Assembly (NCBI GenBank): GCA_044240055.1
Contig: JBIIAG010000010.1
Span: forward strand, 18,463 to 82,462
Origin: Crocinitomicaceae bacterium
GTDB lineage: Bacteria; Bacteroidota; Bacteroidia; Flavobacteriales_D; Crocinitomicaceae
Length of the DNA: 64,000 bases
Direction: 5' to 3'
Shown here: in pieces, positions 43,601 through 62,738 of the stretch
How the letters are laid out: every line of letters starts with the position of its first letter
Numbering within the stretch: the first letter of the stretch is position 1
Made by a program: the position numbers and the translations under genes
The notes under the pieces: model-generated
Databases searched by the model: none
The model's input: only the letters and a program-made list of their open reading frames with translations
Told to the model about the DNA's origin: nothing

Positions 43601-44008
43601 GAGATGGATGAATTACGTTCTGCTGTTCGAAATGCTTCCTATGAGCAAAAAGATCCACTTGTTGTGTACAAATTGGAATCGTATGAATTGTTCCGTTCTA
43701 TGTTGAATCGCTTAAACGAAGAAGCGGTTGAAATGTTGATGAAACTCGATGTGCCTATTGAACAAGCTGTTCAAGGTACAAACCAGGAATCGCGTCAAAA
43801 TAACTACCAACAAGCGCAAACAAATCAATCGACCTCGTCTACACCTACTCCATCTTTCGAAGGACGACAAGGTTACGATGAAGCGATAGCTAATTCTATG
43901 CCGCAAGCGGAAAAACGTCAACCTATCATCGCTGAACCGAAAGTGAATCGAAATGATGCGTGTCCTTGTGGAAGCGGAAAGAAATACAAACAGTGTCACG
44001 GTAAATAA
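40664..44008 (+). CDS. secA: preprotein translocase ATPase SecA
   Basis: Start refined to MIGDILKSIFGDKN. Walker A reads MQTGEGKT. The DEAD-like motif is DEVDSVLIDDARTPLIISG. The C-terminal zinc finger is CPCGSGKKYKQCHG. Confidence 0.97.
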   Translation: MIGDILKSIFGDKNAKDKKLYWPYVELANAAHEHIKTLSDEELRQKSREFQHQIREEKASLEQQLADLRTKAESIETSINEKEDLFDRIDKLEKEVDAQIEETLIKILPEAFAVVKETAYRWASNGQLVVTAEAFDIDLSKKKDGITIDGDKAIWHNEWTAAGGHIKWNMVHYDVQLMGGAVLHKGNISEMQTGEGKTLVATLPVYLNALAGKGVHIVTVNDYLAKRDSEWMGPLYQFHGLSVDCIDKHRPNSKERRQAYLADITFGTNNEFGFDYLRDNMAGHIDDLVQRKHHFAIVDEVDSVLIDDARTPLIISGPTPKGDEHEFHELKPRIERVVDAQKQYVQQCLAEAKKLLTVINEAPEDKNEAKRMLEEGGIALLRAHRGLPKNRTLIKFLSEPGIKVHLQKTENFYMSEQGKNMKKIDAELFFVIDEKNNTIELTDKGIDLVSGKDDRNFFVMPDISDEIAKLQKQNLEKESYLEQKDGLVREYSIKSERIHSINQLLKAYTLFEKEVEYVILDGKVKIVDESTGRILEGRRYSDGLHQAIEAKENVEVEAATQTYATVTLQNYFRMYHKLAGMTGTAETEAKEFWDIYKLDVVIVPTNRAVSRKDQDDFVYKSAREKYNAVILEVEELVAAGRPVLVGTTTVEISELVSRMLQMKKIPHQVLNAKYHQKEAEIVANAGLAGAVTIATNMAGRGTDIKLGEGVKEAGGLAIIGTERHDSRRVDRQLRGRAGRQGDPGSSRFFVSLEDDLMRKFGSERIAKLMDRMGLKEGEVISAGMVSKSIERAQKKVEENNFGVRKNLLEYDDVMNAQRKAIYKKRKNALFGDRLDIDIDNMFFELCETTVKHHSGSEFNDFEMELLRIIGIESPISAEEFEKISKEDLTEKIYASMKESYERKCEKIANRALPQIKHVHENLSDKYKDMVFPLSDGRRELQLIVNIEEAYKSEGKLISKAFEKNVILSKIDDEWKEHLREMDELRSAVRNASYEQKDPLVVYKLESYELFRSMLNRLNEEAVEMLMKLDVPIEQAVQGTNQESRQNNYQQAQTNQSTSSTPTPSFEGRQGYDEAIANSMPQAEKRQPIIAEPKVNRNDACPCGSGKKYKQCHGK

Positions 44009-44778
44009 TGGTGAACGAAAGAAAGATGCGTGTCGCTTTCATTGGCTCTGGAAAAGTTGCCACCGAACTTGCACTTATCTTTCGCTTTCATGGAATTGAA
44101 ATTACCGGTATATCAAGTAGAAATCACTTGAGTGGAACTGCGCTTTCGTCCCGTTTGAATTGTCCATTTGTGGAAGACCCAAACGATTTAGGGGCAGAAT
44201 TAATTATTATAGCAACCAATGATTCTTCGGTTAGAGCATTAAATCAATCACTTAAGAAGGAATCATTTGTTGTATATACTGCAGGCGCAGTGAATTTAGC
44301 CGATTTCCCAAATAAAAATTGGGGAGTGTTTTATCCGCTGCAAACATTCACAGAAAACCGCCATTTAACGATTGACGAAGTACCCATATTATTAGAATCA
44401 AATTCTTTTGAGCTTCGGGATAAACTTGAATCACTTTGCAAGTCAATTGGACTTCAATTTGATTATTGTTCTTCGGAAGACAGACAGAAATATCACCTAG
44501 CGGCAGTTTATGTGAATAATTTTGTCAATCACTTAATATACAAAGCACAAGTTCAATTGCTAGAAAGTAAGTTAAACTGGAACATGTTAAAACCTTTAAT
44601 TGAAGAAACAATTGCTAAACTAGACGACCTTACTGCCTTCGATGCACAAACTGGACCAGCGAGAAGGAATGACAAAAGTACCATTCAGACCCACCAATCT
44701 TTATTAAATAATGAAGAGTTAAACATGTATAATGTACTCACGAATAGCATTCAAAACACCTACAACAACCATGACTAG
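44008..44778 (+). CDS. Rossmann-like / DUF2520 domain protein
   Basis: RVAFIGSGKVATELA dinucleotide-binding N-terminus, with a C-terminal AQTGPARRND motif. The ATG overlaps the secA stop by 1 nt. An alternative start is MRVAFIG at 44026. Confidence 0.6.
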   Translation: MVNERKMRVAFIGSGKVATELALIFRFHGIEITGISSRNHLSGTALSSRLNCPFVEDPNDLGAELIIIATNDSSVRALNQSLKKESFVVYTAGAVNLADFPNKNWGVFYPLQTFTENRHLTIDEVPILLESNSFELRDKLESLCKSIGLQFDYCSSEDRQKYHLAAVYVNNFVNHLIYKAQVQLLESKLNWNMLKPLIEETIAKLDDLTAFDAQTGPARRNDKSTIQTHQSLLNNEELNMYNVLTNSIQNTYNNHD

Positions 44779-45289
44779 TTACAAACATGCATTGAACAAT
44801 ATAAATACCTTTATTTTCGATGTAGATGGTGTTTTCACAGATGGAAAAGTTTATCTGCTGAAAGATGAAATCGTTCGCACCTTAAATTCAAAAGATGGGT
44901 ATGCCGTTCAATACGCAGCAAAAATGGGCTATAAAATCTTTGCCATTACAGGAGGGAATTCAACGGAAGTTCGAGATCGATTACTCGGGTTAGGAATGAA
45001 TCGCGTATACCTAAGTGCGCACAGAAAAATGATTTGTTACGAGGAAATCAAGGCAGAATTTAACTTAACCGATCAAGAAATCGCCTACATGGGAGACGAC
45101 ATCCCGGATATCCCTGTGTTAAAAGTTGCCGGACTTTCAGCTTGTCCTCAAGATGCGGTCAGCGATGTGAAGAGCATTGTCGATTATCAAAGTCCATTTG
45201 ATGGAGGAAAAACCTGTGTCCGAGATATCATCGAACAAACATTACGCGTTCAAGGGAAATGGATGAGTGAGCTTGCTTTTCAATGGTAA
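44771..45289 (+). CDS. kdsC: 3-deoxy-D-manno-octulosonate-8-phosphate phosphatase (HAD-IIIA, YrbI family)
   Basis: Start refined to MTSYKHALNNINTFIFDVDGVFTDGKVYL. HAD motifs are FDVDGV, ITGG and MGDDIPDIPV. Confidence 0.85.
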   Translation: MTSYKHALNNINTFIFDVDGVFTDGKVYLLKDEIVRTLNSKDGYAVQYAAKMGYKIFAITGGNSTEVRDRLLGLGMNRVYLSAHRKMICYEEIKAEFNLTDQEIAYMGDDIPDIPVLKVAGLSACPQDAVSDVKSIVDYQSPFDGGKTCVRDIIEQTLRVQGKWMSELAFQW

Positions 45290-45291
45290 AT

Positions 45292-46325
45292 CTAATCGAT
45301 CTGACTGATTTCTTCTAATAATTGAAACTGATTTCTTGCTCTACGCAAGTTGTGATTTTCGTCCTCCACCCAATAATATTGATCCCCAATTAAGTAATCG
45401 CTTAGAAAACGTAGGCCCTGAATATAAATCACTGCCTTTGCTCCCAAAAGAAAATGTTCCCGTTCTAAATCACTAAGATGGTCGTTCATTGGACCTTGAA
45501 CATACCCATTAATTAATTCCTTTAATATGAGCGGATTAAACACATTCTCCTGCTGTGTATCCTCTGTTCCAACTTGACAAAAAGAACGAACCATATCCCC
45601 GAAATCATAGAGAATACTTCCCACCATGATGGTGTCCCAATCAATAAGTGCACGAACCTCCACCCCATTTGAATCAAATAAAAAATTACTTAATTTGGGA
45701 TCCGCATGTATGATTCGCTTCGGAATCTTTGGCAATAATGCAAGGTATCGTGTTAATACCTCCTCGTACTCCACCATTTTCTTAATCAAATAACTAGCTT
45801 GAGTTCGACGGTATGGAATAGCGACTTTTAAAGAATGTTGATAATCTTTTCTTCTCTTATTGAAATCTAGAAACCCCGGAATGCTTTCTTGGATTTGATT
45901 TTTTGGGAAGTCTAGTAAGTAGGAGTGAAATTCACTCAACGCCTTCGCTGCCTCGAATGCCTGTACATTCTTCGTGAGGACATCTAAACTTTTACTTGGA
46001 TGAATGGCATGAAACATGCGCCATGTTTGTCCTTTATGGTCTTGAAGCAAATAATTTTGATCGGCATTTTTTACAAGCGTTAAACACGATTTTGGATAGC
46101 CTTTTTTTTCTAAAAACTGTGCAATACGCAGTTGATTCATCACTACCAAGTTTGGATTGCTAAATACATGAGTGTTCACTCCTTGAAGAACATAAAACGC
46201 ATCGTTCATTGCCTCAACTAAAAATGTTTTGTGGATGAGGCCGCCTTTTAATAGACTAATCCGCTGGACTTTTGTCTCCAGGGACTTTAAAAAGTCGTTC
46301 GCTACCGATCGTTCCAATTGCCTAT

Positions 46326-46329
<4 letters not shown>
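45292..46329 (-). CDS. APH-fold sugar/small-molecule kinase (NahK/AmgK-like anomeric N-acetylhexosamine kinase candidate)
   Basis: Start refined to an ATG that forms an ATGA overlap with the upstream stop. The Brenner-type catalytic motif is IIHADPKLSNFLFD, followed by LIDWDTIMVG. Length is about 345 aa, typical of NahK/AmgK. Confidence 0.6.
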
Positions 46330-48603
<2,274 letters not shown>

Positions 48604-48643
48604 CTAAAAAAGTTCAGCCGATAGGTCGAACATACCGGCTGAA
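48604..48643 (-). terminator. Rho-independent terminator closing the dab/sulP operon
   Basis: Minus-strand transcript: TTCAGCCG - 15-nt loop - CGGCTGAA, followed by CTTTTTT. It lies about 20 nt past the stop at 48665. Confidence 0.6.
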
Positions 48644-48664
48644 TTATGCTTAAAAAGCATGGAT

Positions 48665-49423
48665 TTATTTTTTAGTAAAATCCAAATTATAGCTTGTAGA
48701 AATCCACAAAGTATGGTTTCGCTCCATTTTTAATCCATCCGCTTTTACAACGAACTGATTCAAGTAACCCACTTGAACATTGAAATTCTTGTCGAAACGC
48801 CATCCCAAAGCTGCAATGAATCGATTTTGGTCCATGATGTTTTTCCCAATTCCAGAACCGAACCCTAAAAACACCTCATCGTTCACATTCAAGAACAAGG
48901 TGTGATCAGTCAGTTCTTTTCGCGACAATGGTATCATGGCAATGGCTCTGTAGCGCAAGCGCTGACGAAAAATCGGATCCACTTGAACGGTATTATTCGC
49001 CGCGTTATTCGCATATTGCTCCATGAAACGTTGTTCCAAACGATATCGGTGTTGCACTTCTACGTTACCGATTTTACTTTTTAAATTTACTTGTTCAAAA
49101 ATTCGGTTTTCGTCAAACACATGAATAATCGGCTGTTCCCCGTATGGAAAAGTTTTTACCCAAGCATATCCAGCCATAACTGAAACATTTGGATTCACTT
49201 GGTATTCCAATCCGAAACGCAATAGAGATTGCTGCCAAGTCTTGAACCCATCCGCTCGACGCCATTGGTATTCCGTCATCAAACTAAATTTTTCCGTCAG
49301 TTTATGGGTTCCAACATACATCGCCCATCCATGCGTTTGTGGACTAATTACTTTTTGGGCAAACATCGTGGTTGGGCAATAGATTCCAACTAAAATCGCG
49401 AGGGTCATTCCAATTTTACTCAT
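48665..49423 (-). CDS. secreted beta-barrel protein (DUF2490-like)
   Basis: Signal peptide ending MFAQ. Amphipathic strand periodicity rich in Y/W/R (RFGLEYQVNPNVSVMAGYAWV, RYRLEQRF, LRYRAIAMIPL). The start overlaps the sulP stop by 4 nt. Confidence 0.5.
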   Translation of the reverse strand: MSKIGMTLAILVGIYCPTTMFAQKVISPQTHGWAMYVGTHKLTEKFSLMTEYQWRRADGFKTWQQSLLRFGLEYQVNPNVSVMAGYAWVKTFPYGEQPIIHVFDENRIFEQVNLKSKIGNVEVQHRYRLEQRFMEQYANNAANNTVQVDPIFRQRLRYRAIAMIPLSRKELTDHTLFLNVNDEVFLGFGSGIGKNIMDQNRFIAALGWRFDKNFNVQVGYLNQFVVKADGLKMERNHTLWISTSYNLDFTKK

Positions 49424-51021
49424 TTCTTTTTACGTGTAGCGGAATGATGAACAGATCCATGAACATTTTTAAAATATTGCAGGCCAATAACATCTAACAT
49501 TCCATCATTTAGTTTAAATTCTGCTTGTAACTGTTGAATGGACTCAATGGCATTGTGATCGATAAAATGGCATTTTGTTACATCTAAATGTATTTGTTCG
49601 GATAAATCAAACGTTCGAAGTTTTGTTTGAATTTTCAAATAGTTTGTAAAAACAATCGCTCCATCCACAACAATTACATTCTTATCCACTTTACATTTTA
49701 GTTTAAATAAATTTTTGAATCCAACACCACGAAATAAATGTAGGATTATTTCGGTAATAATCCCCATGCCAATTCCAATTAATAAATCGCTCATCAAAGT
49801 CACGACAATTGTCACCAAGAAAACCACCAATTGATCGGCACCAATTTTAAACATGTGTCCGAATTCTTTCGGATGAGCCAATTTCCATCCCACTCCAATT
49901 AACATCGCTGCTAAAGCCGACATTGGGATCAAATTACTGAAGGACACTGCAAAAATCAAGAAAATGAAAATGAAAATACCGTGAAATAAATTCGCCCATC
50001 GAGTACGTCCGCCACCATTTACATTCGCTGATGATCGAGCAACTTCGGAAATCATGGGTAATCCACCAAAAATTCCCGCAAGAATATTTCCGAATCCAAC
50101 GGCCATTAGGTCTTTGTTATAATTTGACTTGCGTTTGTAGGGATCCATCATATCAATGGCTTTGACCGTCAACAATGCCTCCAGGGAACCTACAAGTGCA
50201 AACATGATGACATACTTGATAAACGTCCCCAAATGCTGGAAACCGTCAAAACTAACATTGATACCAAGGATATCAAAAAATCCTTTATCGAATGTCAATA
50301 ATGGCTTGAAATTTCCTGAGTTCTCCATTCCGAATGCTATGGCCATCAAAATAGACACTACTAAAACAACTAATGGTGCTGGAATTCTTTTCAAGAAATT
50401 CACTTTCAACATAGGCCAACCAAAAACAATGGCAAGTGATGTTAACCCAATCACCGCAACTTCTGTATGTTCAAAGAAATTAGGAATGGTTGATTTAAGT
50501 AAGAATAACAAATCCAACGGCTCTACCATGGCTTTACCATCGAATGTAAGTGGAGTTACACCTGCGAGAATATGAATTTGCTTACTCATAATGATGATTC
50601 CGATGGCTGCTAACATTCCGTGGACAGCTGAAAGAGGGAAAATATCACTGAATTTTCCGAATTTCAATGCACCAAAAAGTACTTGAATGATTCCTGCCAC
50701 GACCACTGCGCCAAGAGCTAAGTGCCAGCCCAACTCTGCGTTACCGTGTCCTAATTCATGAACGGAACCGGCAACAATGACAATGAGTCCAGCTGCTGGA
50801 CCTTTAATTGTTAATGGTGAGCCAGCAATGAAGCTGACTACAATTCCACCAATCAAGGCAGTTAAAAGACCATAAATAGGTGGAAATTCACTTGCCTTTG
50901 CAATTCCCAAGCTCAAGGGCAATGCGAGTAAAAAAACGAGAAAACCGGACAATGCATCGGCAGAGAAATTCTCTTTCAAACCTTGCCATCCGTCTTTAGG
51001 GATTAATGATTTATTATTCAT
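49420..51021 (-). CDS. SulP family anion (bicarbonate/sulfate-type) transporter with a C-terminal STAS domain
   Basis: 533 aa. The N-terminus DALSGFLVFLLALPLSLGIAKASEFPPIYGLLTALIGGIV is the SulP signature. There are more than 10 TM helices. The C-terminal STAS-like segment reads VIVVDGAIVFTNYLKI...LDVTKCHFIDHNAIESI. Confidence 0.85.
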   Translation of the reverse strand: MNNKSLIPKDGWQGLKENFSADALSGFLVFLLALPLSLGIAKASEFPPIYGLLTALIGGIVVSFIAGSPLTIKGPAAGLIVIVAGSVHELGHGNAELGWHLALGAVVVAGIIQVLFGALKFGKFSDIFPLSAVHGMLAAIGIIIMSKQIHILAGVTPLTFDGKAMVEPLDLLFLLKSTIPNFFEHTEVAVIGLTSLAIVFGWPMLKVNFLKRIPAPLVVLVVSILMAIAFGMENSGNFKPLLTFDKGFFDILGINVSFDGFQHLGTFIKYVIMFALVGSLEALLTVKAIDMMDPYKRKSNYNKDLMAVGFGNILAGIFGGLPMISEVARSSANVNGGGRTRWANLFHGIFIFIFLIFAVSFSNLIPMSALAAMLIGVGWKLAHPKEFGHMFKIGADQLVVFLVTIVVTLMSDLLIGIGMGIITEIILHLFRGVGFKNLFKLKCKVDKNVIVVDGAIVFTNYLKIQTKLRTFDLSEQIHLDVTKCHFIDHNAIESIQQLQAEFKLNDGMLDVIGLQYFKNVHGSVHHSATRKKK

Positions 51022-51043
51022 AGCTAATTCTGTTAAAATGAGT

Positions 51044-52924
51044 TTAAGAAGAGCGTTTTGCTACTTCGTGATATGTTTTAATGTGTGGACCTAGAAACAC
51101 GCGGGCGTATATCCGAACGGTTGCGAGTCCATTAATAACGAGACTTAATGCGGTAAAAAATGCCAAACCGATTTGATCTTCGTGAATGTGTGAAAAGATT
51201 AAATCTTCACCAATGAAGGAAGGCGAAATCGGAAATCCTGCCAATCCCAAACTACAAATCAAAAAGATGATTGCGGCTTTTGGATGTTCGTAAACGTGGC
51301 CATAAAATTGATCCAGACTTATCCATTCTTCACGTTTTCTTAAATAGTTTATGACCATTAATCCCACGAACCAACTCACAAGGATTCCACTCAAATACCA
51401 TAAATTGTGCATGAAATCGTACTGCTCATTGAAGGAAATCGCAATGGCAATAGCCACATGGTTCAACATGATTAAAGTCAAACTTTTTCGCACACTGTCT
51501 TTTTCTGTGTAGGCTTTCACCACAATTAAAAATCCCGAGAAAGCAAAGAAAAAGGGCAATTGATGACGAAGGATTGCCGGCATTTGGTCTCGGAATTGAA
51601 TCGCAATTAATCCCGAAAGAATGACAAATCCAATAAAATAAAAAACGTACTTAAAATTTAATATTTGCCAATTGCGTCCGATTTTTTTCAATGGATTCCA
51701 AAGGATTGTGTACATCAAATTGTCCAGGTTCCACTCTTTCAAATTCAAGATGTAAAACGCGTATTCAAAGCGTTTCGGCCAAGAATCCTCCAAGGTAGCG
51801 GGCTTGCGTTTGAAGTGGTAAAACTGCTCGCGAATCTTGGAACTGACAACCGAAGGAGAGATTAACAGCTGATAAGTGCGTAAAAACGCATTTCCTGTAA
51901 TATGAACCAGCGCAAACACTTCCCACCCCAAAGCAATCTCCATAAAAATCAAACCAATCTGTGCAATAGATGCATAAGCAATTTGAGATTTAATAGAACT
52001 TTGAACACGGCTAATAAAGGTGGCTATGATCGCTGTTAAGAGTCCGGAGAAGATCAAGAAGACCTTGAAAATGATTTGATTTTCCCAAAAATGGATGGTT
52101 CTCAACATCAAAAAAGCTCCAATATGCACCGACAAGGAACCATAGAAAATCGCACTAGATGGTGTTGGTCCTTCCATCGCTCTCGGCAACCAAGATGAAA
52201 AAGGCAATTGCGCCGATTTCGCTGCAGCGGAAATGTAAAACATAAACGCAATGGATAGTCCCACTAAGGAATTTTGAATGATGTGATCATGCACCAACTC
52301 AGCATTGTGCAATTTCGCAAAAGAAATATTTTCATGCCACAAATGATGTGATAACCACATGGCCAAAATGATTCCAACATCTCCGATTCGATAAACAGAA
52401 AAGACTTTGATTGCATTTTTCACCGGTAAATAACGGTCGCGGTAGAACGCTATGAGTAAGAAGGAAGAGATTCCTAATACTTCCCAACCGATGAACATAG
52501 TTTCTAGATTACCAGCAAAAATGATGATGATAAATCCAAGGAAAAAGAACAAAATCGTGTTAAAGAATCGTTTGTATCCTTCTTCTCTATGTAAATAATA
52601 CCGAGAGTAAATCGTTATTAAAAAGGTTAATGATGAACCCAATAACAAGTAAACCATCGTTAACATATCAAAGTAGAAATCTAAATAGAATTCATAACTA
52701 CCATTGCGATAAACAGAGAATTCTTTCAGATTAATTTCATGAAAACCATGAATCGCCCATTGATACGTGAAGAAAATACTCACCAAAAGCTGTAGTCCCA
52801 CAGACGTGTACGCCAAAATGGAAAGTGCATTCTCCTTCTTTTTTGGAATAAATAAGCTCAATGTAAAACTTACCAAAGGAAGAAGAATGAAAAAATGAAT
52901 GAAGAATTTAAATGTAAGTTCCAA
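51044..52924 (-). CDS. dabB: DabB: proton-conducting membrane transporter (NuoL/MrpA-like, PF00361-type) subunit of a DAB inorganic-carbon pump
   Basis: 626 aa and polytopic. NuoL-like motifs are present (GWEVLGISSFLLIAFY, AAAKSAQLPFSSWLPRAMEGPTPSSAIFYGSLSVHIG). There are no other nuo genes nearby, and it sits 6 nt downstream of a DUF2309 gene. The start is TTG per the ORF track. Confidence 0.8.
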   Translation of the reverse strand: MELTFKFFIHFFILLPLVSFTLSLFIPKKKENALSILAYTSVGLQLLVSIFFTYQWAIHGFHEINLKEFSVYRNGSYEFYLDFYFDMLTMVYLLLGSSLTFLITIYSRYYLHREEGYKRFFNTILFFFLGFIIIIFAGNLETMFIGWEVLGISSFLLIAFYRDRYLPVKNAIKVFSVYRIGDVGIILAMWLSHHLWHENISFAKLHNAELVHDHIIQNSLVGLSIAFMFYISAAAKSAQLPFSSWLPRAMEGPTPSSAIFYGSLSVHIGAFLMLRTIHFWENQIIFKVFLIFSGLLTAIIATFISRVQSSIKSQIAYASIAQIGLIFMEIALGWEVFALVHITGNAFLRTYQLLISPSVVSSKIREQFYHFKRKPATLEDSWPKRFEYAFYILNLKEWNLDNLMYTILWNPLKKIGRNWQILNFKYVFYFIGFVILSGLIAIQFRDQMPAILRHQLPFFFAFSGFLIVVKAYTEKDSVRKSLTLIMLNHVAIAIAISFNEQYDFMHNLWYLSGILVSWFVGLMVINYLRKREEWISLDQFYGHVYEHPKAAIIFLICSLGLAGFPISPSFIGEDLIFSHIHEDQIGLAFFTALSLVINGLATVRIYARVFLGPHIKTYHEVAKRSS

Positions 52925-52930
52925 AGCGCT

Positions 52931-55399
52931 TTAAAGTGTTAATTCAACAACAGGTAAATTCTTGGCTTCATTCGTTACAAATGGCATCACTTCATCAACA
53001 TGATTTAGTGCTCTTTGAGGTAAATCATAAGGTGTAAATCTTCCATTTGCGAATTGATAGAACTGTTTCTCCAACGGATGGAATGCCACCAAATTCACCC
53101 AACTATTCAAGAACCATTCATAGGTCGTAGGATTCGTTTGAATGGTATTCAAAACCACTTCAGGAAAATGTTCCACAATAACTAACATCCTCATCGGATC
53201 GTGTACCTCTATCATTTGACTAGGTAATCCCGTACGTAAATCCCCATCGATTCCATTCGCCACCCCAATAAGTCCCATGACATTATGTGGCAACTTCGTT
53301 CCTGCCCCCAACTTTTGGTTATCCACCCGTGAGAAATAATATTCTAAGTTGATTCCCCCACAAACGGGCGCTACCGCATTTAGAATTCCCAACAAGTAAT
53401 TTCCATCTGGATCAACTTCGTAATCAAAGGAATTTAAAAAGGAACGTCGATCTAGGAACAATCCTCTTGAGAAGGAACGTCGACCCACAATGCACAAAGC
53501 ATTTGTTGCGTGATTCAACTCAGGTCGAGGTTCGAAAAGAGATACCGAGCGCAATTTCACGTTCTCATGCACCTTTTTTACTGCTTTTCTTGAATTCATT
53601 ACAACAAATCTTCTCGATCTTTCGGTTGCATTAAAATCTAAGGCTTGATCGAATAACCGCTTGTTGACTTGATGTCTCTCTTTATTTCGTTTGGTTAATG
53701 GTTCAACATCAAAGTATGTAAACTCATCCCGACTGGTATCATGTAAAACGGGAACAAATTGAGTGCTTTCTGGAAGTTCAATGCCACGTTCTTTAAGCTT
53801 TTTTCGAACGATTGGATGGTTTCCAATATAACTAAGTACACGAGCATTGACCGATCCCGGACGTCCAGAACACGCTCCACAGTCGTATCCTGCGTAGTGT
53901 GTATTGTTCGAGCTGCTTGACCCATGTCCAACCACATAAATGAGCGGCGCGAAAGCTTGATTTAAGCCAATACTCATTAACAAGGCATGAATACGATCTG
54001 TCATTTCGTCGACATTGTATCCAACGCTCAAACCGTCCTCGGTCAGTTGTCCATTCGTATTTTCAATCAACAAAGTCGAATCTGCACACATGTGTCCGCT
54101 TGAAGAAACTGCCACGGTATTCATGGATGGTTTAAAAATAGCTAATGCTAATTTAAGTGCAGACCAGAATCCCATGGTATGCGTTAAAATCCAACCGAAA
54201 ACCAGTCCGTAGGACCTGGCATGAAAGTGATATTCTTTATCCGATTTCGCATTATTCGCGATTTCTTTGATTAAGAATTTTGGCGAAACTGGCGCTGGAC
54301 AAACCTTGGTTCTAAACGTAGATCCGTATGGTTGGAAATAAAACTCCACTCCGAAGAATCCAGCAGTGCCAAAAGTCTGAACACCGGGATGTCCTTCCTC
54401 GATGTATCGTCGAATGGAGCATTCACGGTCATCAATGCAGAAAACACCTTGTAATTCAGGTTTTTTTTCCTCCGCAACGATCTTTTCTTTTAATCCGTTG
54501 AGTACTTCGTTGTAATAGGTCCACTCATAGGCTTCTTGCCAAATGCGTTTGACTTCATCTAATTCTGTCATTTCAACAGGAGCAAACAAATCGCGAATGG
54601 GCCTTGCATCTTGACCAATTGGCATCCAAATTTCGCCAAACTGTGCATCCAGGGCATCTATCTCCAATAAACATTCGAAAATCATCCAGTCAACAAAGTC
54701 TATTTGACGTGAGTCAATTAAAGCTTGTGCGTCCCCGGAAAGGACTGAAACCATACCCGAGTAACCGGGGTGAGCAAATTGTTGATCGAACAGGTAACGC
54801 TCAAAAAGTTCTTCCTTACCTACTAAAATAGCCAGGCAATCTTCGATGTGAAGCGCTGGATTCTTTAACAGTTCTTTTGCACGACGCCTTTTGAAAAAGC
54901 TCACCGAACCGTTGGACTCTAGATGCCTCATGGCAGCTAGAAATCCCAAATCTTTGATTGGGAAATTCCAGACGGAAATCCCTTGATCTAAATAACTACT
55001 TGTAATTCTAAAAAGAGTCGAATGCGTATAGTTATCTAAATCAATTTTATACTGTGATTTCCATTGCACACGTAGCTCCCCTATACGTGGAGTCGTTTGT
55101 TCGCTATGCTCTTTGTCCAGTAAACAAGATATCCAATACGATTTATCTTCCGAAGGAATAAAGCGGTCTAAGATTAGTTTATTGATTTTACCTTCCTGGA
55201 ATAATTGACGGTATTCACTTAGTTGCAAATACGTTTTATACCCAAATAATTCACTCGATTTTTTCAATCCCTTATGGAACGAATCATGCTGAAAGGCATG
55301 AAGCGTATTGTGGTGAATAAAATCTTTCAGTGGTGACTGAGACGGGAGGTAATGACTTAACTTTTCTACAACTTTTTCAAGTTGAAAGGTGTTTTTCAT
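52931..55399 (-). CDS. dabA: DabA: DUF2309 (PF10070-type) subunit of a DAB inorganic-carbon pump
   Basis: 822 aa. The N-terminus LSHYLPSQSPLKDFIHHNTLHAF is typical of DUF2309. It carries a beta-carbonic-anhydrase-like CxDxR motif (FCIDDRECS) and a His/Cys pair 15 residues apart (GHGSSSSNNTHYAGYDC). Confidence 0.85.
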   Translation of the reverse strand: MKNTFQLEKVVEKLSHYLPSQSPLKDFIHHNTLHAFQHDSFHKGLKKSSELFGYKTYLQLSEYRQLFQEGKINKLILDRFIPSEDKSYWISCLLDKEHSEQTTPRIGELRVQWKSQYKIDLDNYTHSTLFRITSSYLDQGISVWNFPIKDLGFLAAMRHLESNGSVSFFKRRRAKELLKNPALHIEDCLAILVGKEELFERYLFDQQFAHPGYSGMVSVLSGDAQALIDSRQIDFVDWMIFECLLEIDALDAQFGEIWMPIGQDARPIRDLFAPVEMTELDEVKRIWQEAYEWTYYNEVLNGLKEKIVAEEKKPELQGVFCIDDRECSIRRYIEEGHPGVQTFGTAGFFGVEFYFQPYGSTFRTKVCPAPVSPKFLIKEIANNAKSDKEYHFHARSYGLVFGWILTHTMGFWSALKLALAIFKPSMNTVAVSSSGHMCADSTLLIENTNGQLTEDGLSVGYNVDEMTDRIHALLMSIGLNQAFAPLIYVVGHGSSSSNNTHYAGYDCGACSGRPGSVNARVLSYIGNHPIVRKKLKERGIELPESTQFVPVLHDTSRDEFTYFDVEPLTKRNKERHQVNKRLFDQALDFNATERSRRFVVMNSRKAVKKVHENVKLRSVSLFEPRPELNHATNALCIVGRRSFSRGLFLDRRSFLNSFDYEVDPDGNYLLGILNAVAPVCGGINLEYYFSRVDNQKLGAGTKLPHNVMGLIGVANGIDGDLRTGLPSQMIEVHDPMRMLVIVEHFPEVVLNTIQTNPTTYEWFLNSWVNLVAFHPLEKQFYQFANGRFTPYDLPQRALNHVDEVMPFVTNEAKNLPVVELTL

Positions 55400-55451
55400 T
55401 CAAATAGTTATTTGTTAAACAATTGATTTTAGGGTCAATGCTCAACAAATA

Positions 55452-55817
55452 CTATATTCTGAAATTCTGAAATTGAATGAAAAGTGGAAGTTTCTCCCAT
55501 CGGTGGTGGTGGGTGAAATAGGAATATTTTGAACTCGTTAAAGTACTGAATGTAAGTATTGGACTTTCAATGCTTGATGAAACCAAGTCCATATCTTGAT
55601 CGAAGTCTCCCCCATCTTCGTCCAATTCGACGTCTTCTTCGAATTCAAAGGCATTCAAATTTACATCACCCGAAACTTTACGTAAGATGATTTGCTTGTT
55701 TTCTGAATGAGATTTGGAAGAAGTTATGACAGCACCAAAAACGATATTGCCCAACGTTACATTGAGGAAAACACCCAATGCACAGAAAAACAGACAGAAA
55801 CGACGTATCACATTCAC
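55452..55817 (-). CDS. hypothetical membrane-anchored acidic protein
   Basis: 121 aa with a GTG start. It has an N-terminal hydrophobic anchor and an acidic stretch (EFEEDVELDEDGGDFDQDMD). It lies 52 nt upstream of dabA on the same strand. Confidence 0.4.
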   Translation of the reverse strand: MNVIRRFCLFFCALGVFLNVTLGNIVFGAVITSSKSHSENKQIILRKVSGDVNLNAFEFEEDVELDEDGGDFDQDMDLVSSSIESPILTFSTLTSSKYSYFTHHHRWEKLPLFIQFQNFRI

Positions 55818-55890
55818 GATGCAAAGTTAAATCATAATAACATCCGATCGCTTAATAAACTTGTTAATTTAAATTCACATTTCTAATTCC

Positions 55891-55898
55891 TATCTTTG
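55891..55898 (+). promoter_or_regulatory. Bacteroidota -7 box (TAnnTTTG) upstream of rocD
   Basis: TATCTTTG lies about 30 nt upstream of the ATG at 55929. Confidence 0.45.
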
Positions 55899-55928
55899 TC
55901 ATCAAATCATCAACGTTTATTCGCAATT

Positions 55929-57194
55929 ATGAATCAAGCAAACCAACACATCACATTAGAAGACCAATACGGAGCACACAACTACCATCCACTACCTGTT
56001 GTTTTAACAAAAGGAGAAGGTGTTTTTGTTTGGGATGTGGACGGAAAAAAATATTTTGATTTCCTCTCTGCTTACTCTGCGGTAAACCAAGGACACTGTC
56101 ATCCAAAAATCACACAAGCATTAATAGATCAAGCGCAAACCTTGGCTTTGACTTCGCGTGCTTTTTACAATGACTCGCTTGGACACTACGAGAAATTTGT
56201 GACGGAAACATTCGGTTTTGACAAAGTACTTCCAATGAATACGGGTGCAGAAGCCGTTGAAACAGCGATTAAATTATGCCGCAAATGGGCCTATGAGAAA
56301 AAGGGAATCGCAGAAAATGAGGCAGTAATCATTGTGTGTGAAGGAAACTTCCACGGACGCACAACAACCATCGTGTCGTTTTCGAGTGATCCGGATTCCT
56401 ACCAGAATTTTGGACCTTTCCCTGCTGGATTCGTTTCTATTCCATATGATGACATTTCTGCGCTTGAAGTAGCGTTGAAAGGAAAAAATGTAGCGGGATT
56501 CCTAGTAGAACCGATTCAAGGGGAAGCTGGAGTTTATACACCAGGTGAGATGTTCCTGAGCGAAGCAAAACGACTTTGTACGGAAAACAATGTGCTTTTT
56601 ATCGCGGATGAAGTTCAAACAGGCATCGCACGTACGGGAAGTTTATTAGCGACGTGTGGAAACTGTACCTGCGAACACAAATGTGAGCGTCAAACAGCAA
56701 CATACAATCGTCCGGATATCCTCATTCTAGGAAAAGCACTTTCAGGAGGTGTTTATCCAGTTTCTGCTGTGCTAGCAGACGACGAAATCATGATGGTCAT
56801 CAAACCTGGACAACACGGTTCAACCTTTGGTGGAAATCCCATTGCAGCGAAAGTTGCCATTGCAGCGTTAGAAGTAGTGTATGAAGAAAACCTGATCCAA
56901 AATGCCCGCAAACTTGGCTCCTTATTTCGAAAAGAAATGAACCGAATCATCGAAACGAATGATTTGATTCTTCAAGTGCGTGGAAAAGGATTGTTAAACG
57001 CGATTGTCGTGAACGATTCTCCAGATAGCCAAACGGCTTGGAATTTATGTGTGGCGTTAAAAGAAAATGGACTTTTAGCGAAACCGACACATGGAAACAT
57101 CATTCGCTTTGCACCACCTTTGGTTATTACCGAAGAACAGTTGATGGATTGCGTTGCAATCATTGAAAACACGATTCGCGCGTTCTCGAAGTAA
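55929..57194 (+). CDS. rocD: ornithine--oxo-acid aminotransferase
   Basis: Start refined to [26 protein letters not shown]. Class-III aminotransferase motifs are [14 protein letters not shown] and ILGKALSGG (PLP lysine). It is colinear with eukaryotic and bacterial OAT apart from a Cys-rich insertion. Confidence 0.9.
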
Positions 57195-57253
57195 AAAAGT
57201 AAGGGGCGTTTATTAATCTCATTCACCTCGAATTTTTTCCTGCTAATTTCCCT

Positions 57254-57261
57254 ATCTTTGC
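57254..57261 (+). promoter_or_regulatory. Bacteroidota -7 box (TAnnTTTG) upstream of the phosphohexomutase gene
   Basis: TATCTTTG lies 20 nt upstream of the TTG start at 57281. Confidence 0.45.
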
Positions 57262-57280
57262 CTCATTAAAATCAATCAAT

Positions 57281-58690
57281 TTGGCACAGAAAATTAAATT
57301 TGGAACGGACGGATGGCGAGCCATCATTGCCGATGACTTTACCGTGGAAAACGTCGCTCGCGTAACCGAAGCAACCGGAATCTGGTTAAAAAATAATTAC
57401 GAGAATCCTTCCGTTATCGTTGGACACGATTGTCGTTTTGCAGGAGAATTGTTCATGGAAACAGCCGTGAAAGTACTCGTTGCTCAAGGAATTCCTGTTC
57501 GCATGTCACGTGGATTCGTTTCCACTCCCATGATATCACTTGCAGCGTATCAATTTCAATGTGAAGTAGGTATCATCCTAACCGCAAGCCATAATCCTCC
57601 TTCTTACAATGGATTCAAGTTAAAAGCATTCTTTGGTGGACCATTGGAACCAGAGAAAGTGCAAGAAGTAGAGGACATCATTCCAGATATTTGTACGATT
57701 GATTACAAGTCCGTAAACATTGATGCAGGGATTGAAGCTGGAAAAATAGAAATCGTAGACATTGAAACACGCTACGTGGAACACGTGAAAAAGAACTTTG
57801 ACCTTGACGCGATTTCAAATTCTGGATTGAACCTAGTGTACGATGCCATGTACGGCGCTGGTCAACGCGTAATGCCTTTGATTTTGCCAAAAACACAGTT
57901 GTTGCATTGTGACCACAATCCATCTTTCCGTGGACAAGCACCAGAACCGATTGCAAAAAACCTTCAGGAATTAGAAGCGTTCATCAAAGCAGATGGAACT
58001 ATTTCCTGTGCCTTGGCAACTGACGGTGATGCTGATCGCATTGGACTATACAATGGAAAAGGTGAATTCATCGATTCTCACCACATCATCCTCTTGTTGA
58101 TTCACTACATGGTGAAATACAAACAAATGACTGGAAAAGTAGTCATTGCTTTCAGTGTGACACCTCGTGTAGAGAAATTGTGTGCGCATTATGGACTCGA
58201 AATTCAAACCACAAAAATTGGATTCAAAGAAATTGCGTCCATCATGATCAAGGACGATGTTCTACTTGGTGGAGAAGAATCCGGAGGAATTGCTGTAAAA
58301 GGACACATTCCAGAACGCGATGGAATTTGGATGGGATTAATTATCTGGGAATTCATGGCGAAATCAGGTAAGTCACTCGATGAGTTGATTGATGAAGTAT
58401 ATGAAATCGTAGGCCCATTTAAATTTGAACGCAACGACCTTCACATCACCGAGGAATTAAAACAAAAAATCATTGCGAATTGCAAAGCAAATAATTACAC
58501 GTCCTTTGGGAAATACCAAGTCGCTGACTTGAAAACCATCGACGGATTCAAGTATTTCTTCGACGACAATCGTTGGGTCATGATTCGTCCTTCTGGAACG
58601 GAACCTGTTCTTCGTACGTATGCAGAAGCACCAACATTGGAGGAAGTACGTGAAATATTGAAAGCAACAGAAGAAACGATTTGTCAATAA
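57281..58690 (+). CDS. alpha-D-phosphohexomutase (phosphoglucomutase/phosphomannomutase family)
   Basis: 469 aa. N-terminus FGTDGWRAII. The active-site serine loop is LTASHNPPSYNGFK. The metal loop is ATDGDADR. The sugar loop is GGEESGG. Confidence 0.9.
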   Translation: MAQKIKFGTDGWRAIIADDFTVENVARVTEATGIWLKNNYENPSVIVGHDCRFAGELFMETAVKVLVAQGIPVRMSRGFVSTPMISLAAYQFQCEVGIILTASHNPPSYNGFKLKAFFGGPLEPEKVQEVEDIIPDICTIDYKSVNIDAGIEAGKIEIVDIETRYVEHVKKNFDLDAISNSGLNLVYDAMYGAGQRVMPLILPKTQLLHCDHNPSFRGQAPEPIAKNLQELEAFIKADGTISCALATDGDADRIGLYNGKGEFIDSHHIILLLIHYMVKYKQMTGKVVIAFSVTPRVEKLCAHYGLEIQTTKIGFKEIASIMIKDDVLLGGEESGGIAVKGHIPERDGIWMGLIIWEFMAKSGKSLDELIDEVYEIVGPFKFERNDLHITEELKQKIIANCKANNYTSFGKYQVADLKTIDGFKYFFDDNRWVMIRPSGTEPVLRTYAEAPTLEEVREILKATEETICQ

Positions 58691-58711
58691 GATAATTTCA
58701 AATTCAGATGT

Positions 58712-58750
58712 GAGCCTCGACAGTATCGTCGGGGCTTTTTTTTTGTTTTT
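58712..58750 (+). terminator. Rho-independent terminator after the phosphohexomutase gene
   Basis: GAGCCTCGAC - loop - GTCGGGGCTT (one mismatch), followed by a long T-run (tttttttttgtttttt). Confidence 0.6.
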
Positions 58751-58825
58751 TGAAAATGATTTACTATATTTAGATTATATAAATATATTATAACAACATT
58801 CACAAGCTCACTTCCAGAAAGTCTA

Positions 58826-59026
58826 TTGCAACAATTGCAGGATAAATCGAAAGAATTCGGAATTCCTAAAAATAAAATCATTGAAAAGGCTCTCACCCTG
58901 TACTTGGAAGAATTGAACAAAGCGGCCTATGTTCGTTCGTATAAAGAAATGAGCGAGGATACCAATCTTTTTCAAATCGCCGAGGAAGGAATAGCTGAAT
59001 ACCACAAGCAACTGAAAGATCCTTAA
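58826..59026 (+). CDS. ribbon-helix-helix (CopG/MazE-like) antitoxin
   Basis: IPKNKIIEKALTLYLEE is an RHH helix pattern. It sits 5 nt upstream of a MazF-family gene. The frame is open upstream to about 58760, and the expected N-terminal beta-strand (SLPESLL) lies before the listed TTG. The true start is therefore unclear. Confidence 0.65.
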   Translation: MQQLQDKSKEFGIPKNKIIEKALTLYLEELNKAAYVRSYKEMSEDTNLFQIAEEGIAEYHKQLKDP

Positions 59027-59031
59027 TCACT

Positions 59032-59364
59032 ATGAAACAGGGAGAACTTTGGTTTGCCAATTTGAATCTGGTCAAAGGAAGCGAACAGGCTGGAATGCGT
59101 CCGGTCGTTATTGTGAGTGGAAACTTACTCAATACGTATTTGAACACGGTTATTTGTTGTCCACTGACGACAAAAATCAAGCATTACAAAGGTGAAGTGG
59201 TCCTTGAGCCAACGGAGCAAAACGGACTCACCACCGAATCAGAAATTCTGACGCATCACATTCGCTCCATATCGAAAGACCGACTTACAAAACGCATAGG
59301 CGTCATCGAAGAAAAGGAAGTTCAGTTAATCAAAAAGTACTTGAATGAAATCATGACGTATTAA
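59032..59364 (+). CDS. mazF: MazF/PemK family type II toxin endoribonuclease
   Basis: 110 aa. GELWFANLNLVKGSEQAGMRPVVIVSGNLLN....VICCPLTTK is the PemK/MazF signature. Confidence 0.85.
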   Translation: MKQGELWFANLNLVKGSEQAGMRPVVIVSGNLLNTYLNTVICCPLTTKIKHYKGEVVLEPTEQNGLTTESEILTHHIRSISKDRLTKRIGVIEEKEVQLIKKYLNEIMTY

Positions 59365-59367
59365 GAT

Positions 59368-60192
59368 TTAGCCCAAGGCCACATCTAAAATCATCATCAC
59401 GAGAAATCCACCGATGAAACCGAGAACAGCGACATCTGTGTATTTGTCCCGCTGGGTTTCCGGAATCACTTCCTCTACCACCACGAAAATCATTGCTCCA
59501 GCGGCAAACGAAAGCGCGAAAGGCAAAATGGGCTCCATGTAGATCACGGCTACAGCTCCAATAACGCCCGCTATTGGCTCAACAATCGCTGATAGTTGTC
59601 CATACATGAAACTTTTAAAACGACTCGCTCCTGCCCTTCTTAATGGCATGGCAACGGCAAATCCTTCCGGGAAATTCTGAATACCAATTCCGATTGCTAA
59701 TGCAATTGCTCCGGCGATAGTTGCTCCTTCCATTCCATGTGCTGCGGCGCCAAAAAGTACTCCGACTGCTAGTCCTTCGGGAATGTTGTGTAAGGTAATG
59801 GCAAGAACCAACAAGGTTGTTTTGTGCAATTGCGTTTTCACGCCTTCGGACTCTTCTTCCTTAAAGTTGATGTGTAAATGCGGGAGTTTTTTGTCTAAAA
59901 AGAACAAAAACAAGGCTCCAACAAGGAATCCAACGGCTGCTGGCATCCATGACATTGTCGGATATAGTCGTTCGGAAAGTTCGATGGAGGGCAGTAACAA
60001 GGACCAAAAACTAGCAGCTACCATCACACCACCTGTGAAACCTAACATGCCATCGAGGAGTCCACGGTGCATGTTTTTAAAGAAGAAAACCAAGGAAGCT
60101 CCAGCTGCAGTGACAAGCCAGGTAAAGGTTGTTGCGAGAAATGCCGCAAAAACTGGATCAATGTGTTGGAAGTAATGTTCGAGTTCTTTCAT
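59368..60192 (-). CDS. ZIP family divalent metal transporter (ZupT-like)
   Basis: 274 aa and polytopic. Signature LHNIPEGLAVG and QNFPEGFAVAMPL. Confidence 0.85.
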   Translation of the reverse strand: MKELEHYFQHIDPVFAAFLATTFTWLVTAAGASLVFFFKNMHRGLLDGMLGFTGGVMVAASFWSLLLPSIELSERLYPTMSWMPAAVGFLVGALFLFFLDKKLPHLHINFKEEESEGVKTQLHKTTLLVLAITLHNIPEGLAVGVLFGAAAHGMEGATIAGAIALAIGIGIQNFPEGFAVAMPLRRAGASRFKSFMYGQLSAIVEPIAGVIGAVAVIYMEPILPFALSFAAGAMIFVVVEEVIPETQRDKYTDVAVLGFIGGFLVMMILDVALG

Positions 60193-61832: not shown

Positions 61833-62738
61833 ATGTCGAATTGGGAACGCTATATTAAGGATTTTGTTTCATACTTGAAAATCGAGAAGGGATTGGCTGA
61901 GAATTCCATCTTGGCGTATCAAAACGATGTCGATAAATTAAAAGACTTTTCAGGGGGAATTGGGAAGACAGCGGATCAACTCAATTACGAGGACCTCAAA
62001 CAATTTCTTTCCACGCTTTTCGACTTCGGACTCAGTGCTAGAAGTCAAGCACGAATCATTTCAGGCATCAAACAGTTTTACGGATTTCTCATCCTAGAAA
62101 ACTTGGTAAAAGTGGATCCAAGTGAGCTCTTGGAACAACCCAAACTTGGACGCAAACTTCCGGAGGTTTTGTCCATCGAAGAAATCGATGCCTTGCTCGC
62201 AGCAATTGACTTGAGTAAAAACGAAGGGCACCGCAATCGCGCCATGCTAGAAACGTTGTATAGTTGTGGCTTGCGTGTGAGTGAACTCGTTGGACTCCGT
62301 TTTTCAGACCTCTTTTTTGAGGAAGGATTTATCCGTGTGATTGGTAAAGGAAATAAGGAACGCTTAGTACCGGTGAGTCCCCAAGTTCAGAAAGAAATCG
62401 AGATTTATCAACAGCACATTCGGAACCATTTGAACATCCAAAAGGGAAGTGAAAACATCGTTTTTTTAAACCGAAGAGGTGCACAATTGACCCGTGTCAT
62501 GGTCTTTACGATCATCAAAAATTTGGCAGAATCCATCGGACTCAAAAAGAACATTTCACCGCATACCTTTCGACATAGTTTTGCGACGCATTTGATTGAA
62601 GGAGGTGCCAATTTACGGGCGATTCAGGAGATGTTGGGACACGAATCCATCACAACGACCGAGATCTACACACACTTAGATCAACGCTTCCTGAGGGATG
62701 CTATTTTGTCGTTTCATCCACGAAATGCCAAAGCGTAA
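61833..62738 (+). CDS. xerD: site-specific tyrosine recombinase XerD
   Basis: 301 aa. N-terminal SAM-like domain (YLKIEKGLAENSILAYQNDV). The catalytic region includes RNRAMLETLYSCGLRVSE, PHTFRHSFATHLIEGGANLRAIQEMLGHESITTTEIYTH. Confidence 0.9.
   Translation: MSNWERYIKDFVSYLKIEKGLAENSILAYQNDVDKLKDFSGGIGKTADQLNYEDLKQFLSTLFDFGLSARSQARIISGIKQFYGFLILENLVKVDPSELLEQPKLGRKLPEVLSIEEIDALLAAIDLSKNEGHRNRAMLETLYSCGLRVSELVGLRFSDLFFEEGFIRVIGKGNKERLVPVSPQVQKEIEIYQQHIRNHLNIQKGSENIVFLNRRGAQLTRVMVFTIIKNLAESIGLKKNISPHTFRHSFATHLIEGGANLRAIQEMLGHESITTTEIYTHLDQRFLRDAILSFHPRNAKA

Follow-up and report, generated by a model that had tools for sequence, protein, structure and literature searches.

An apparently distinct, uncharacterised class of DAB-family locus, with a His-type DabA and a linked sulP gene, in a Crocinitomicaceae contig

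In a window of 64,000 nucleotides from a Crocinitomicaceae bacterium (assembly GCA_044240055.1, contig JBIIAG010000010.1, positions 18,463 to 82,462), which is the whole stretch of DNA that we analysed, the genes dabA and dabB encode a DUF2309-type protein and a NuoL-like membrane protein, the two subunits of the DAB family of inorganic-carbon pumps. A sequence-only reading had described them as open reading frames (ORFs) of 822 and 626 amino acids (aa) separated by 6 nt. Both the coordinates and Pfam confirm this, with dabA upstream of dabB and the TTG of dabB as the sole canonical in-frame start upstream of its first transmembrane helix (TM1). That reading gave the extent of the pair correctly and missed the conserved downstream genes sulP and DUF2490, which probably belong to the same unit (Table 1). 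The safest statement on the locus, as judged from sequence, is that it is a genuine DAB-family member with an intact catalytic centre that falls in a distinct and apparently uncharacterised class. The presence of a DAB in a heterotrophic Bacteroidota is not new in itself, because homologues of DAB in heterotrophs (10.1101/476713) and of MpsAB in Bacteroidetes (PMC6689103) have been published.

Table 1. Genes and sequence motifs at the dabA-dabB locus (positions are those of the window)
Feature	Position	Strand	Remark
dabA, His-type, 822 aa, ATG start	52931-55399	minus	PF10070; predicted cytoplasmic beta-carbonic-anhydrase-like subunit
dabB, long form, 626 aa, TTG start	51044-52924	minus	PF00361 + PF00662; predicted NuoL-like ion-translocating membrane subunit
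DabA CIDDR, residues 321-325: Zn ligand C321, D323-R325 dyad	54425-54439	minus	Invariant (197/197)
DabA lid motif GTAGFFG, residues 344-350	54350-54370	minus	Counterpart of DAB1 GI(A/G)GFFG
DabA hydrophobic finger/elbow helix, residues 399-422, without acidic residue	54134-54205	minus	Single helix in AlphaFold2 model, low local confidence
DabA HGSSSSNNTHYAGYDCGAC: Zn ligands H492, C507 (plus C510)	53870-53926	minus	DabA2 H524/C539; invariant in clade
DabA RPELNH, with H630	53510-53527	minus	At position of Leu658 (DabA2) / Leu825 (DabA1)
DabB E148 (TM5)	52481-52483	minus	NuoL E144 (phmmer, 7z7r_L); DabB2 has Ile151
DabB Y261...H267 (TM8)	52124-52144	minus	Tyr at NuoL H254 / DabB2 H260; His six residues on
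DabB TM11 HITGNAFLR: H341-x3-N345-x3-R349	51878-51904	minus	Replaces NuoL H334/H338/K342
DabB GFPISPSFIGEDLI, TM12-like broken-helix motif with D574 (tentative)	51197-51238	minus	Weak NuoM/MrpD TM12 match, E=0.04-0.05
sulP, 533 aa, SulP/SLC26 anion transporter	49420-51021	minus	PF00916, E=8e-65; 22 nt past dabB
DUF2490 protein, 252 aa, signal peptide	48665-49423	minus	PF10677, E=1e-49; ATGA overlap with sulP stop
Small ORF, 121 aa, GTG start	55452-55817	minus	52 nt upstream of dabA; unit membership uncertain

DabA matches PF10070 over the entire profile (E=8e-212; 706 bits, where the cutoff is 25; positions 1-747 of 747; Pfam), and its residues 310-744 align to residues 340-778 of H. neapolitanus DabA2 (9rd0_A; E=5e-60, 206 bits, phmmer against the PDB). 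The DabA2 segment was rebuilt from this phmmer alignment, and its numbering reproduces every residue named in the paper on the DAB2 structures 9rd0, 9rd8 and 9rd9 (10.64898/2026.03.13.711513; PMC13144422). Among the hallmarks of DAB1 and DAB2 are a Cys2His zinc site, completed by an Asp-Arg dyad, as well as the lid GI(A/G)GFFG and the loop NNP....DCGACGG (10.64898/2026.03.13.711513 and 10.64898/2026.05.01.722082, the two structure papers for DAB2 and DAB1 respectively). All the zinc-ligand positions match, since C321, D323, R325, H492 and C507 of the window DabA correspond to C351, D353, R355, H524 and C539 of DabA2; these are the CIDDR motif and the His/Cys pair 15 residues apart that the sequence-only reading had picked out. 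The lid and the loop NNTHYAGYDCGACSG (residues 498-512), counterpart of the DAB NNP....DCGACGG loop, are kept with conservative changes. Furthermore, in a clade alignment of 197 relatives, 46-92% identical, to which the DabA2 segment was added, the zinc ligands, the Asp-Arg dyad, H553/D558 (H585/D590 in DabA2) and R625 (R653) are invariant or nearly so. The pair has in common with DAB2 a unit of PF10070 and PF00361 proteins, the Cys2His site with its dyad, a lid GxxGFFG, a loop NNxxxxxxDCGAC, RPE with R625, H553/D558, the K236/D182 pair of DabB and a hydrophobic DabA helix at the position of the finger.

The third DabA motif is different. It reads SLFEPRPELNH, with Leu628, Asn and His630 in place of Trp656, Gly657 and Leu658 of DabA2, and position 630 is His in 197/197 relatives, thus the Leu of DAB1 and DAB2 is absent from this position. 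Moreover, Glu326 stands in place of DabA2 Ser356. The closest structural relative of DabA is CsoSCA, in which the equivalent His is a proposed proton shuttle, and the DAB authors hold that Leu disfavours HCO3- binding (both structure papers). Nevertheless, changing Leu658 to Gln, Asn, Ala or Gly left DAB2 function unimpaired in vivo (10.64898/2026.03.13.711513), and because these substitutions did not abolish function H630 may change the kinetics rather than the principle.

Regarding the membrane finger/elbow of DAB2, both E444A and E444Q are inactive (10.64898/2026.03.13.711513), although the DAB1 paper disputes that the finger/elbow has a proton-transfer role (10.64898/2026.05.01.722082). 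No Glu or Asp is conserved in the clade between DabA residues 398 and 436, so that an equivalent of Glu444 is missing; the conserved residues of this region are T406, H407/Q, W412, K416/R, K423/R and H436. The alignment is uncertain here, as E444 is paired with K416 by phmmer and with N427 by MAFFT. The AlphaFold2 (AF2) model of DabA has an overall predicted local distance difference test (pLDDT) of 83 and a predicted template modelling score (pTM) of 0.86. A Foldseek search of the PDB with this model gave no match at E<=0.001 in a fold set apparently without 9rd0, and for this reason the comparison of the fold with DabA2 is made at the sequence level.

The differences become clearer beside DAB2-type loci. 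We compared five such loci on plasmids (Pantoea, Phaeobacter, Halobaculum, Salinivibrio and Dysgonomonadaceae), whose DabAs are 26-31% identical to the window DabA over the aligned stretches. All five have CID[VT]RSE and DWxxxRPEWGL, and all have the gene order LysR, dabB (455-521 aa), dabA, whereas in the window and in the other His-type loci examined dabA comes before dabB and sulP is commonly linked to the pair. The claim that the pair is not a new system type is not supported, since five features (H630, the absence of Glu444, Y261 and E148 of DabB, and the gene order) separate it from DAB1/DAB2. Nor, given these five departures, is there support for the implied view that the pair is equivalent to DAB2 of H. 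neapolitanus and to MpsAB of S. aureus. DAB1 (DabABC, Thermocrinis albus / H. neapolitanus) resembles the window pair in its family, zinc site, buried active site, lid and loop and in the NuoL-like partner, but its DabA has about 1000 aa, carries NNPYESALDCGACGG and a DW(xxx)RPEWGL ending in Leu825, and depends on DabC as an additional, third subunit. In the window the gene next to the pair is sulP, and no small membrane gene resembling dabC was seen between dabA and dabB or immediately flanking them. S. aureus MpsAB is likewise a DAB-family pair in a heterotroph. It is required for growth at ambient CO2 (PMC6689103), the role proposed for the window pair, and both DAB2 and MpsAB rescue carbonic anhydrase (CA)-null E. 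coli (10.1101/476713; PMC6689103). However, mpsA, for the membrane subunit, precedes mpsB and no SulP partner has been described; this comparison was made by description and not with the MpsB sequence.

To see how widely the His occurs, we can turn to a HMMER search of 1.84 billion representatives (clustered at 50% identity), which gave 3729 members of the DabA family at E<=1e-3. Among the 150 best representatives (34-60% identity, 390-1390 aa) the His of the (R)PE-x-[GN]-H motif is found in 150/150, and FC[ILV]D[DE]RE in nearly all. A search with a profile of 30 representatives returned proteins of Acidobacteriota, Planctomycetota, Verrucomicrobiota, Myxococcota, Bdellovibrionota and Methylococcaceae; by motif pattern, 105 of the 114 newly returned proteins have His and one has Leu, while the pattern was unmatched in the other 8. 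The His-type thus forms a large branch that includes Bacteroidota, Planctomycetota, Acidobacteriota, Myxococcota and others, from freshwater and soil. Two DabA homologues among the representatives, P0141 and P0171, have lost the zinc ligands (CCSDSPES; GH-TSGAQELYQAAHNCAFC and similar) and are possible pseudo-enzymes within the branch. An autotroph-versus-heterotroph basis of the Leu/His split was rejected, because heterotrophs (Pantoea, Phaeobacter, Salinivibrio, Halobaculum) have plasmids with DAB2-like loci of the Leu-type, and it is not a simple phylum split either, as one Leu-type locus belongs to the Bacteroidota (Dysgonomonadaceae). In the limited collection of literature searched we found no description of the His-type branch, of a 'DAB3', or of SulP together with DUF2309, DabA or MpsAB.

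The gene order is also a property of the branch, since dabA comes first in every readable His-type locus: in 77/80 Bacteroidota-type loci, in which dabB follows it directly, in a Methylococcaceae locus and in loci of further lineages. Behind the genes of the longer His-type DabAs (900-1100 aa) there are two PF00361 genes and not one, as in Bryobacteraceae and Phycisphaerales (L089:6001-11521 and L090:6001-12016), where DabAs of 936 and 1039 aa precede PF00361 genes for about 450 and 460-500 aa. On a Methylococcaceae contig (L087:4880-16592, JGI 3300033416) two unlike His-type sets adjoin each other. One consists of sulP, a 66-aa ORF, dabA (863 aa) and dabB (626 aa), which is the architecture of the window, and the other of a NuoM/N-like PF00361 gene (507 aa), a 108-aa ORF and dabA (1066 aa). 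As both are kept on one contig, the variants seem not to be interchangeable.

These data bear on one alternative, namely that the locus is an ordinary DAB/MpsAB equivalent in which the residue differences are neutral drift and sulP is a mere co-regulated neighbour. It would agree with the retention of the catalytic residues and of the DAB-specific lid and loop, with the DAB homologues known from heterotrophs and Bacteroidetes (PMC6689103), and with the tolerance of Leu658 substitutions and the dispute about the finger/elbow, by which two of the differences may not matter. But an H630 that is invariant in the 197 clade members and in the 150 best representatives, across several phyla, indicates selection and not drift, and the two unlike sets of the Methylococcaceae contig argue for functional differentiation within the branch.

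DabB adds to this. Its match to PF00361 (129 bits) covers profile positions 1-224 of 294 only, PF00662 is also matched, and the profile check that had been proposed for the pair was thus positive for both proteins. DabB is closer to E. coli NuoL (E=2e-43) than to DabB2 (8e-26, 94 bits), and only residues 10-367 align. An identity as the NuoL of complex I was rejected: the models NF005141 and TIGR01974 gave 211 and 198 bits for cutoffs of 556 and 407, on residues 10-362 only, and there are no nuo genes nearby. The NdhF3 model reached 96 bits for a cutoff of 589. As had been said at first, the pair stands apart from complex I. In a Pfam survey of almost every ORF of 110 aa or more in the 64-kb window, nothing besides dabAB matched complex I or Mrp, and there were no genes for carbonic anhydrase, RuBisCO or carboxysomes.

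The DabBs studied so far have an essential TM8 His (H260/H229, the latter in T. albus), a K235/D185 pair and Ile151 for NuoL Glu144. Mutation of the TM8 His abolishes the activity of DAB1 and DAB2, and a Glu re-introduced into DabB2 halves DAB2 function (both structure papers). The five DAB2-type DabBs have A, T, L or V at the TM5 Glu position, the TM8 His, and H-x3-H-x3-K on TM11, whereas the window DabB has Glu on TM5, Tyr on TM8 and an H/N/R series on TM11 (Table 1). The ion pair R179/D182 (NuoL R175/D178; D185 in DabB2), K236 of TM7 (NuoL K229, DabB2 K235) and K312 of TM10 (NuoL K305) are retained. E148, Y261, H267, N345 and R349 are invariant in an alignment of 45 DabB sequences (A2), and a Methylococcaceae DabB of 37% identity shows the same pattern of channel residues. 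A Tyr in place of the His that is essential in DAB1/DAB2, together with the TM5 Glu that DabB2 lost, does not fit well with the ordinary equivalent either.

The window DabB is also longer than DabB2 (626 aa instead of 551), with about 75 extra C-terminal residues that contain a TM12-like GEDL motif. The C-terminal 260 residues, with about six predicted helices, are kept at full length in 69 loci, and D574 is at least 95% conserved among the relatives. In the AF2 model of DabB (pLDDT 71, pTM 0.76) a broken helix is found at 548-561 / 568-578. The best Foldseek match of this model is NuoL, at root-mean-square deviations of 2.3 Å over the first ~350 residues and of more than 20 Å in full-length alignments; as only the N-terminal half superposes, the idea of a TM12 half-channel stays at the level of a motif (E about 0.04). 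Our hypothesis is that DabB may carry its own TM12 acidic residue, and such a residue supplied by DabB would fit the missing Glu in the DabA finger.

The resemblance to NuoL suggests another possibility, that the pair does not primarily serve carbon. It could be a cation (Na+/H+) membrane-potential or pH device, as first proposed for S. aureus MpsABC, or a reversible membrane-anchored carbonic anhydrase in which the His restores ordinary beta-CA chemistry. E148 and R179/D182/K236 are indeed kept in a DabB nearer to NuoL than to DabB2, the Tyr, Asn and Arg of TM8 and TM11 could reflect another coupling ion, and H630 occupies the position of the CsoSCA proton-shuttle His, where Leu has been argued to block HCO3- binding. 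Nevertheless, MpsAB turned out to be necessary for growth in ambient CO2 (PMC6689103), no sequence feature identifies the ion, and the conserved partners of the locus are anion transporters, once a beta-CA, and not cation-homeostasis genes. Therefore, we consider this explanation very unlikely.

Those partners are seen in the neighbouring genes. From dabA to DUF2490 the spacing is operon-like (6 nt, 22 nt and then an ATGA overlap) and points to an apparent co-transcription of the four genes. Sigma-70 promoter-like and terminator-like sites were no commoner than in shuffled sequence, and there was no intergenic terminator above chance. Both flanks could be read in 54 related loci. In 44 of these (81%) sulP lies on the strand of dabAB and no more than 1.6 kb away, on the downstream side in 38 cases and on the upstream side in 6, and a DUF2490 gene is present in 25 of all 80 loci. 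The gene sulP also adjoins His-type dabAB in the Methylococcaceae locus and in one further non-Bacteroidota locus. In ten of the 54 fully flanked loci sulP is absent; in one of the ten, dabB is immediately followed by a gene for a beta-carbonic anhydrase, which ties the neighbourhood of dabAB to inorganic carbon. The DUF2490 protein would be, from its sequence pattern, an outer-membrane beta-barrel.

Furthermore, the partner is in some cases physically fused to DabA. In the Saprospiraceae protein P0122 (1390 aa) residues 10-528 form a SulP (51% identity with that of the window) and residues 548-1357 a DabA (46%). Its cluster has seven members from independent assemblies, each on its own contig and five of them full length (NCBI MDP4998064.1, MDP4822134.1 and MDP4710609.1; other members from JGI and ENA). 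In a second type of fusion, P0334 (1224 aa), a CitMHS permease is joined to DabA and the start of dabB follows; just upstream, on the same short contig (L086:314-7529), are genes for a Porin_O_P phosphate-selective-type porin and for CorA. That DabA has been fused independently to SulP and to CitMHS speaks for a physical connection and not for mere co-regulation, so that, with the residue data above, we regard an ordinary DAB/MpsAB equivalent as quite unlikely.

We give about an even chance to the interpretation that 48665-55399 is a four-gene operon that provides cytoplasmic bicarbonate to a freshwater heterotroph by ion-driven CO2 hydration and by SulP-mediated HCO3- import. In this operon DabA, a zinc beta-CA-like enzyme, would dock on DabB, a NuoL-like translocator of cations, and the flow of the presumed coupling ion (H+ or Na+) through DabB would drive the net hydration by which CO2 becomes intracellular HCO3-, as in DAB and MpsAB. 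SulP would most likely import HCO3-, by analogy with cyanobacterial BicA plus NDH-1/Cup and with SulP-CA fusions. In this way the module would acquire inorganic carbon as CO2 and as HCO3- and would retrieve CO2 that leaks out, and the bicarbonate would feed carboxylases. A bicarbonate supply was also what the sequence-only reading had suggested, and we judge it the most reasonable function. The coupling details probably differ from those of DAB1/DAB2, because DabA keeps a CsoSCA-like His and the NuoL-like DabB has other channel residues.

Both analogies have their limits. SulP-CA fusions, which have been read as bicarbonate transporters (Felce and Saier 2004, as cited in PMC10219603), and BicA share with the window a SulP/SLC26 transporter joined genetically or physically to a beta-CA-type enzyme; in the window this enzyme is a DabA with its own membrane partner and not a soluble beta-CA domain, and in P0122 the SulP is N-terminal to DabA. 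The NDH-1(3/4) complexes with CupA/CupB are alike in placing a zinc CO2-hydrating protein on an NdhF/NuoL-like antiporter subunit, beside separate HCO3- transporters, but CupA/B are unrelated to DabA and sit on a whole NDH-1 complex, of which there are no genes in the window.

Several observations weigh against the bicarbonate-supply operon. DabB2 H260 is replaced by Tyr261, Glu444 is absent and Leu658 is replaced by His, although these residues were reported as essential or strictly conserved, and in the literature searched no experimentally characterised His-type member was found. A run labelled RNA-Seq (X4) showed DNA-like flat coverage over genes and spacers and gives no transcript support, and the search for a carbonic anhydrase covered the 64-kb window. 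By sequence, the window SulP matches BicA best among PDB entries (6ki1, E=3e-23), but it reaches only 142 bits with the NCBIfam BicA model, for a cutoff of 880, and 188 bits with each of the general sulP and DauA models. The sodium-site residues D258/T262/T302 of BicA are E/T/V in the window SulP, which at this site is not BicA-like. Finally, 32/38 linked SulPs have a VARSSAN motif, presumably of the generic SulP type because it resembles the motifs of DauA and of sulfate transporters.

The last of these points would be explained if the locus served a bicarbonate-powered uptake of anions, in which SulP swaps the HCO3- made by DabAB for sulfate, dicarboxylate or similar from dilute fresh water, like an SLC26-CA metabolon, and the supply of carbon is secondary. 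A SulP whose site (Glu, VARSSAN) is generic and whose best models are not BicA, a SulP bound to DabA in one polypeptide, a CitMHS fusion which suggests that the partner is 'an anion transporter' and not something bicarbonate-specific, and a DUF2490 protein with a signal peptide, translationally coupled to sulP, which fits an anion route across the outer membrane, are all in line with it. On the other hand, the Pfam survey of the window found no sulfur-assimilation or dicarboxylate genes nearby, and the loci without sulP, including the one with a beta-CA instead, imply that dabAB has its own role. In addition, anion/HCO3- exchange is not established for bacterial SulPs, and in the literature SulP-CA fusions have been taken for bicarbonate transporters. 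We hold anion uptake to be unlikely, but it is the alternative to which we give most weight.

A broader proposal is more tentative than the bicarbonate-supply operon, and we would sooner expect it to fail than to hold. The His-type, dabA-first branch could be a third, mechanistically distinct class of DAB, with a physical SulP-DabA-DabB assembly (plus the outer-membrane DUF2490), in which ion flow through a more NuoL-like DabB, with a second half-channel of its own, is coupled to a DabA with a CsoSCA-type His, wired to an anion transporter, for uptake of CO2 and HCO3- or for bicarbonate-driven anion exchange. If this were true, the models of DAB vectoriality (Leu block, finger Glu, TM8 His) would cover one branch of the family only.

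DAB complexes are, to our knowledge, the only carbonic anhydrases driven by the proton motive force, and they are candidates for engineered carbon uptake in crops and industrial microbes. The mechanisms proposed in 2026, from two structures, lean on the active-site Leu, the finger Glu and the TM8 His. A His-type branch that lacks all three and yet strongly conserves the zinc site is thus a natural test of what vectorial CO2 hydration requires. Moreover, the SulP and CitMHS fusions point to an unrecognised partnership of enzyme and transporter, which would give a function to many SulP genes labelled 'sulfate permease'. This is also worth taking into account in annotation. The expectation that such pairs are named as an NADH dehydrogenase subunit plus a hypothetical protein proved right in close relatives, which public records call 'NADH-quinone oxidoreductase subunit L', 'hypothetical protein' or 'YbcC/DUF2309', and in these phyla the calls 'NADH dehydrogenase subunit L' and 'hypothetical/YbcC' are wrong or empty in thousands of cases.

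Regarding the host, the nearest contigs are Crocinitomicaceae (Flavobacteriales) metagenome-assembled genomes, 90-91% identical across the locus and with common flanking genes, and near-identical DNA is contained in lake, river and wastewater metagenomes. Cultured relatives such as Arsenicibacter rosenii and Ekhidna sp. carry the genes as well. Four window proteins (96-935, 3930-6554, 9470-11332 and 19697-21835) have C-terminal sorting domains (CHU_C or Por_Secre_tail) of the type IX secretion system (T9SS), which fits a gliding/T9SS Bacteroidota host.

Around the locus, the small ORF upstream of dabA encodes a protein that is hydrophobic at its N-terminus and very acidic in its middle part, has no Pfam or NCBIfam match, and is kept only in the closest relatives (L001-L008, L013 and L014; 37-85% identity). 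Directly downstream of the locus, 45292-48579 (minus) encodes a GH109-like oxidoreductase/glycosidase together with a nucleotidyltransferase and an APH-type kinase that resemble an AmgK/MurU-type pair for recycling of N-acetylmuramic acid (MurNAc); this gene set travels with the locus in closer relatives only. At a distance of 4 kb from dabA, itself the gene of a zinc enzyme, there is one for a ZIP-family zinc transporter (59368-60192, minus), probably by coincidence. ARAGORN and Rfam showed no RNA feature of note, Rfam having no match in 44000-60000.

Elsewhere in the window, three regions on the minus strand (13762-17167, 25639-26931 and 30893-32176) hold large ORFs (786, 361, 430 and 427 aa) with no Pfam match at E<=0.001. 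Peptidoglycan-active genes are unusually dense (1065-1535, 12337-13599, 18154-18885, 22060-22923 and 37199-39001), with NlpC/P60, YkuD L,D-transpeptidase, M15 carboxypeptidase, GH25 lysozyme and a LysM protein. Towards its 3' end the window has genes for a MazF/PemK-type toxin (59032-59364, plus) and for a XerC/D-like tyrosine recombinase (61833-62738, plus). An SPFH/Band-7 protein with a GYF_2 domain is encoded at 28758-30457 (plus) and is followed by a second, small GYF_2 protein.

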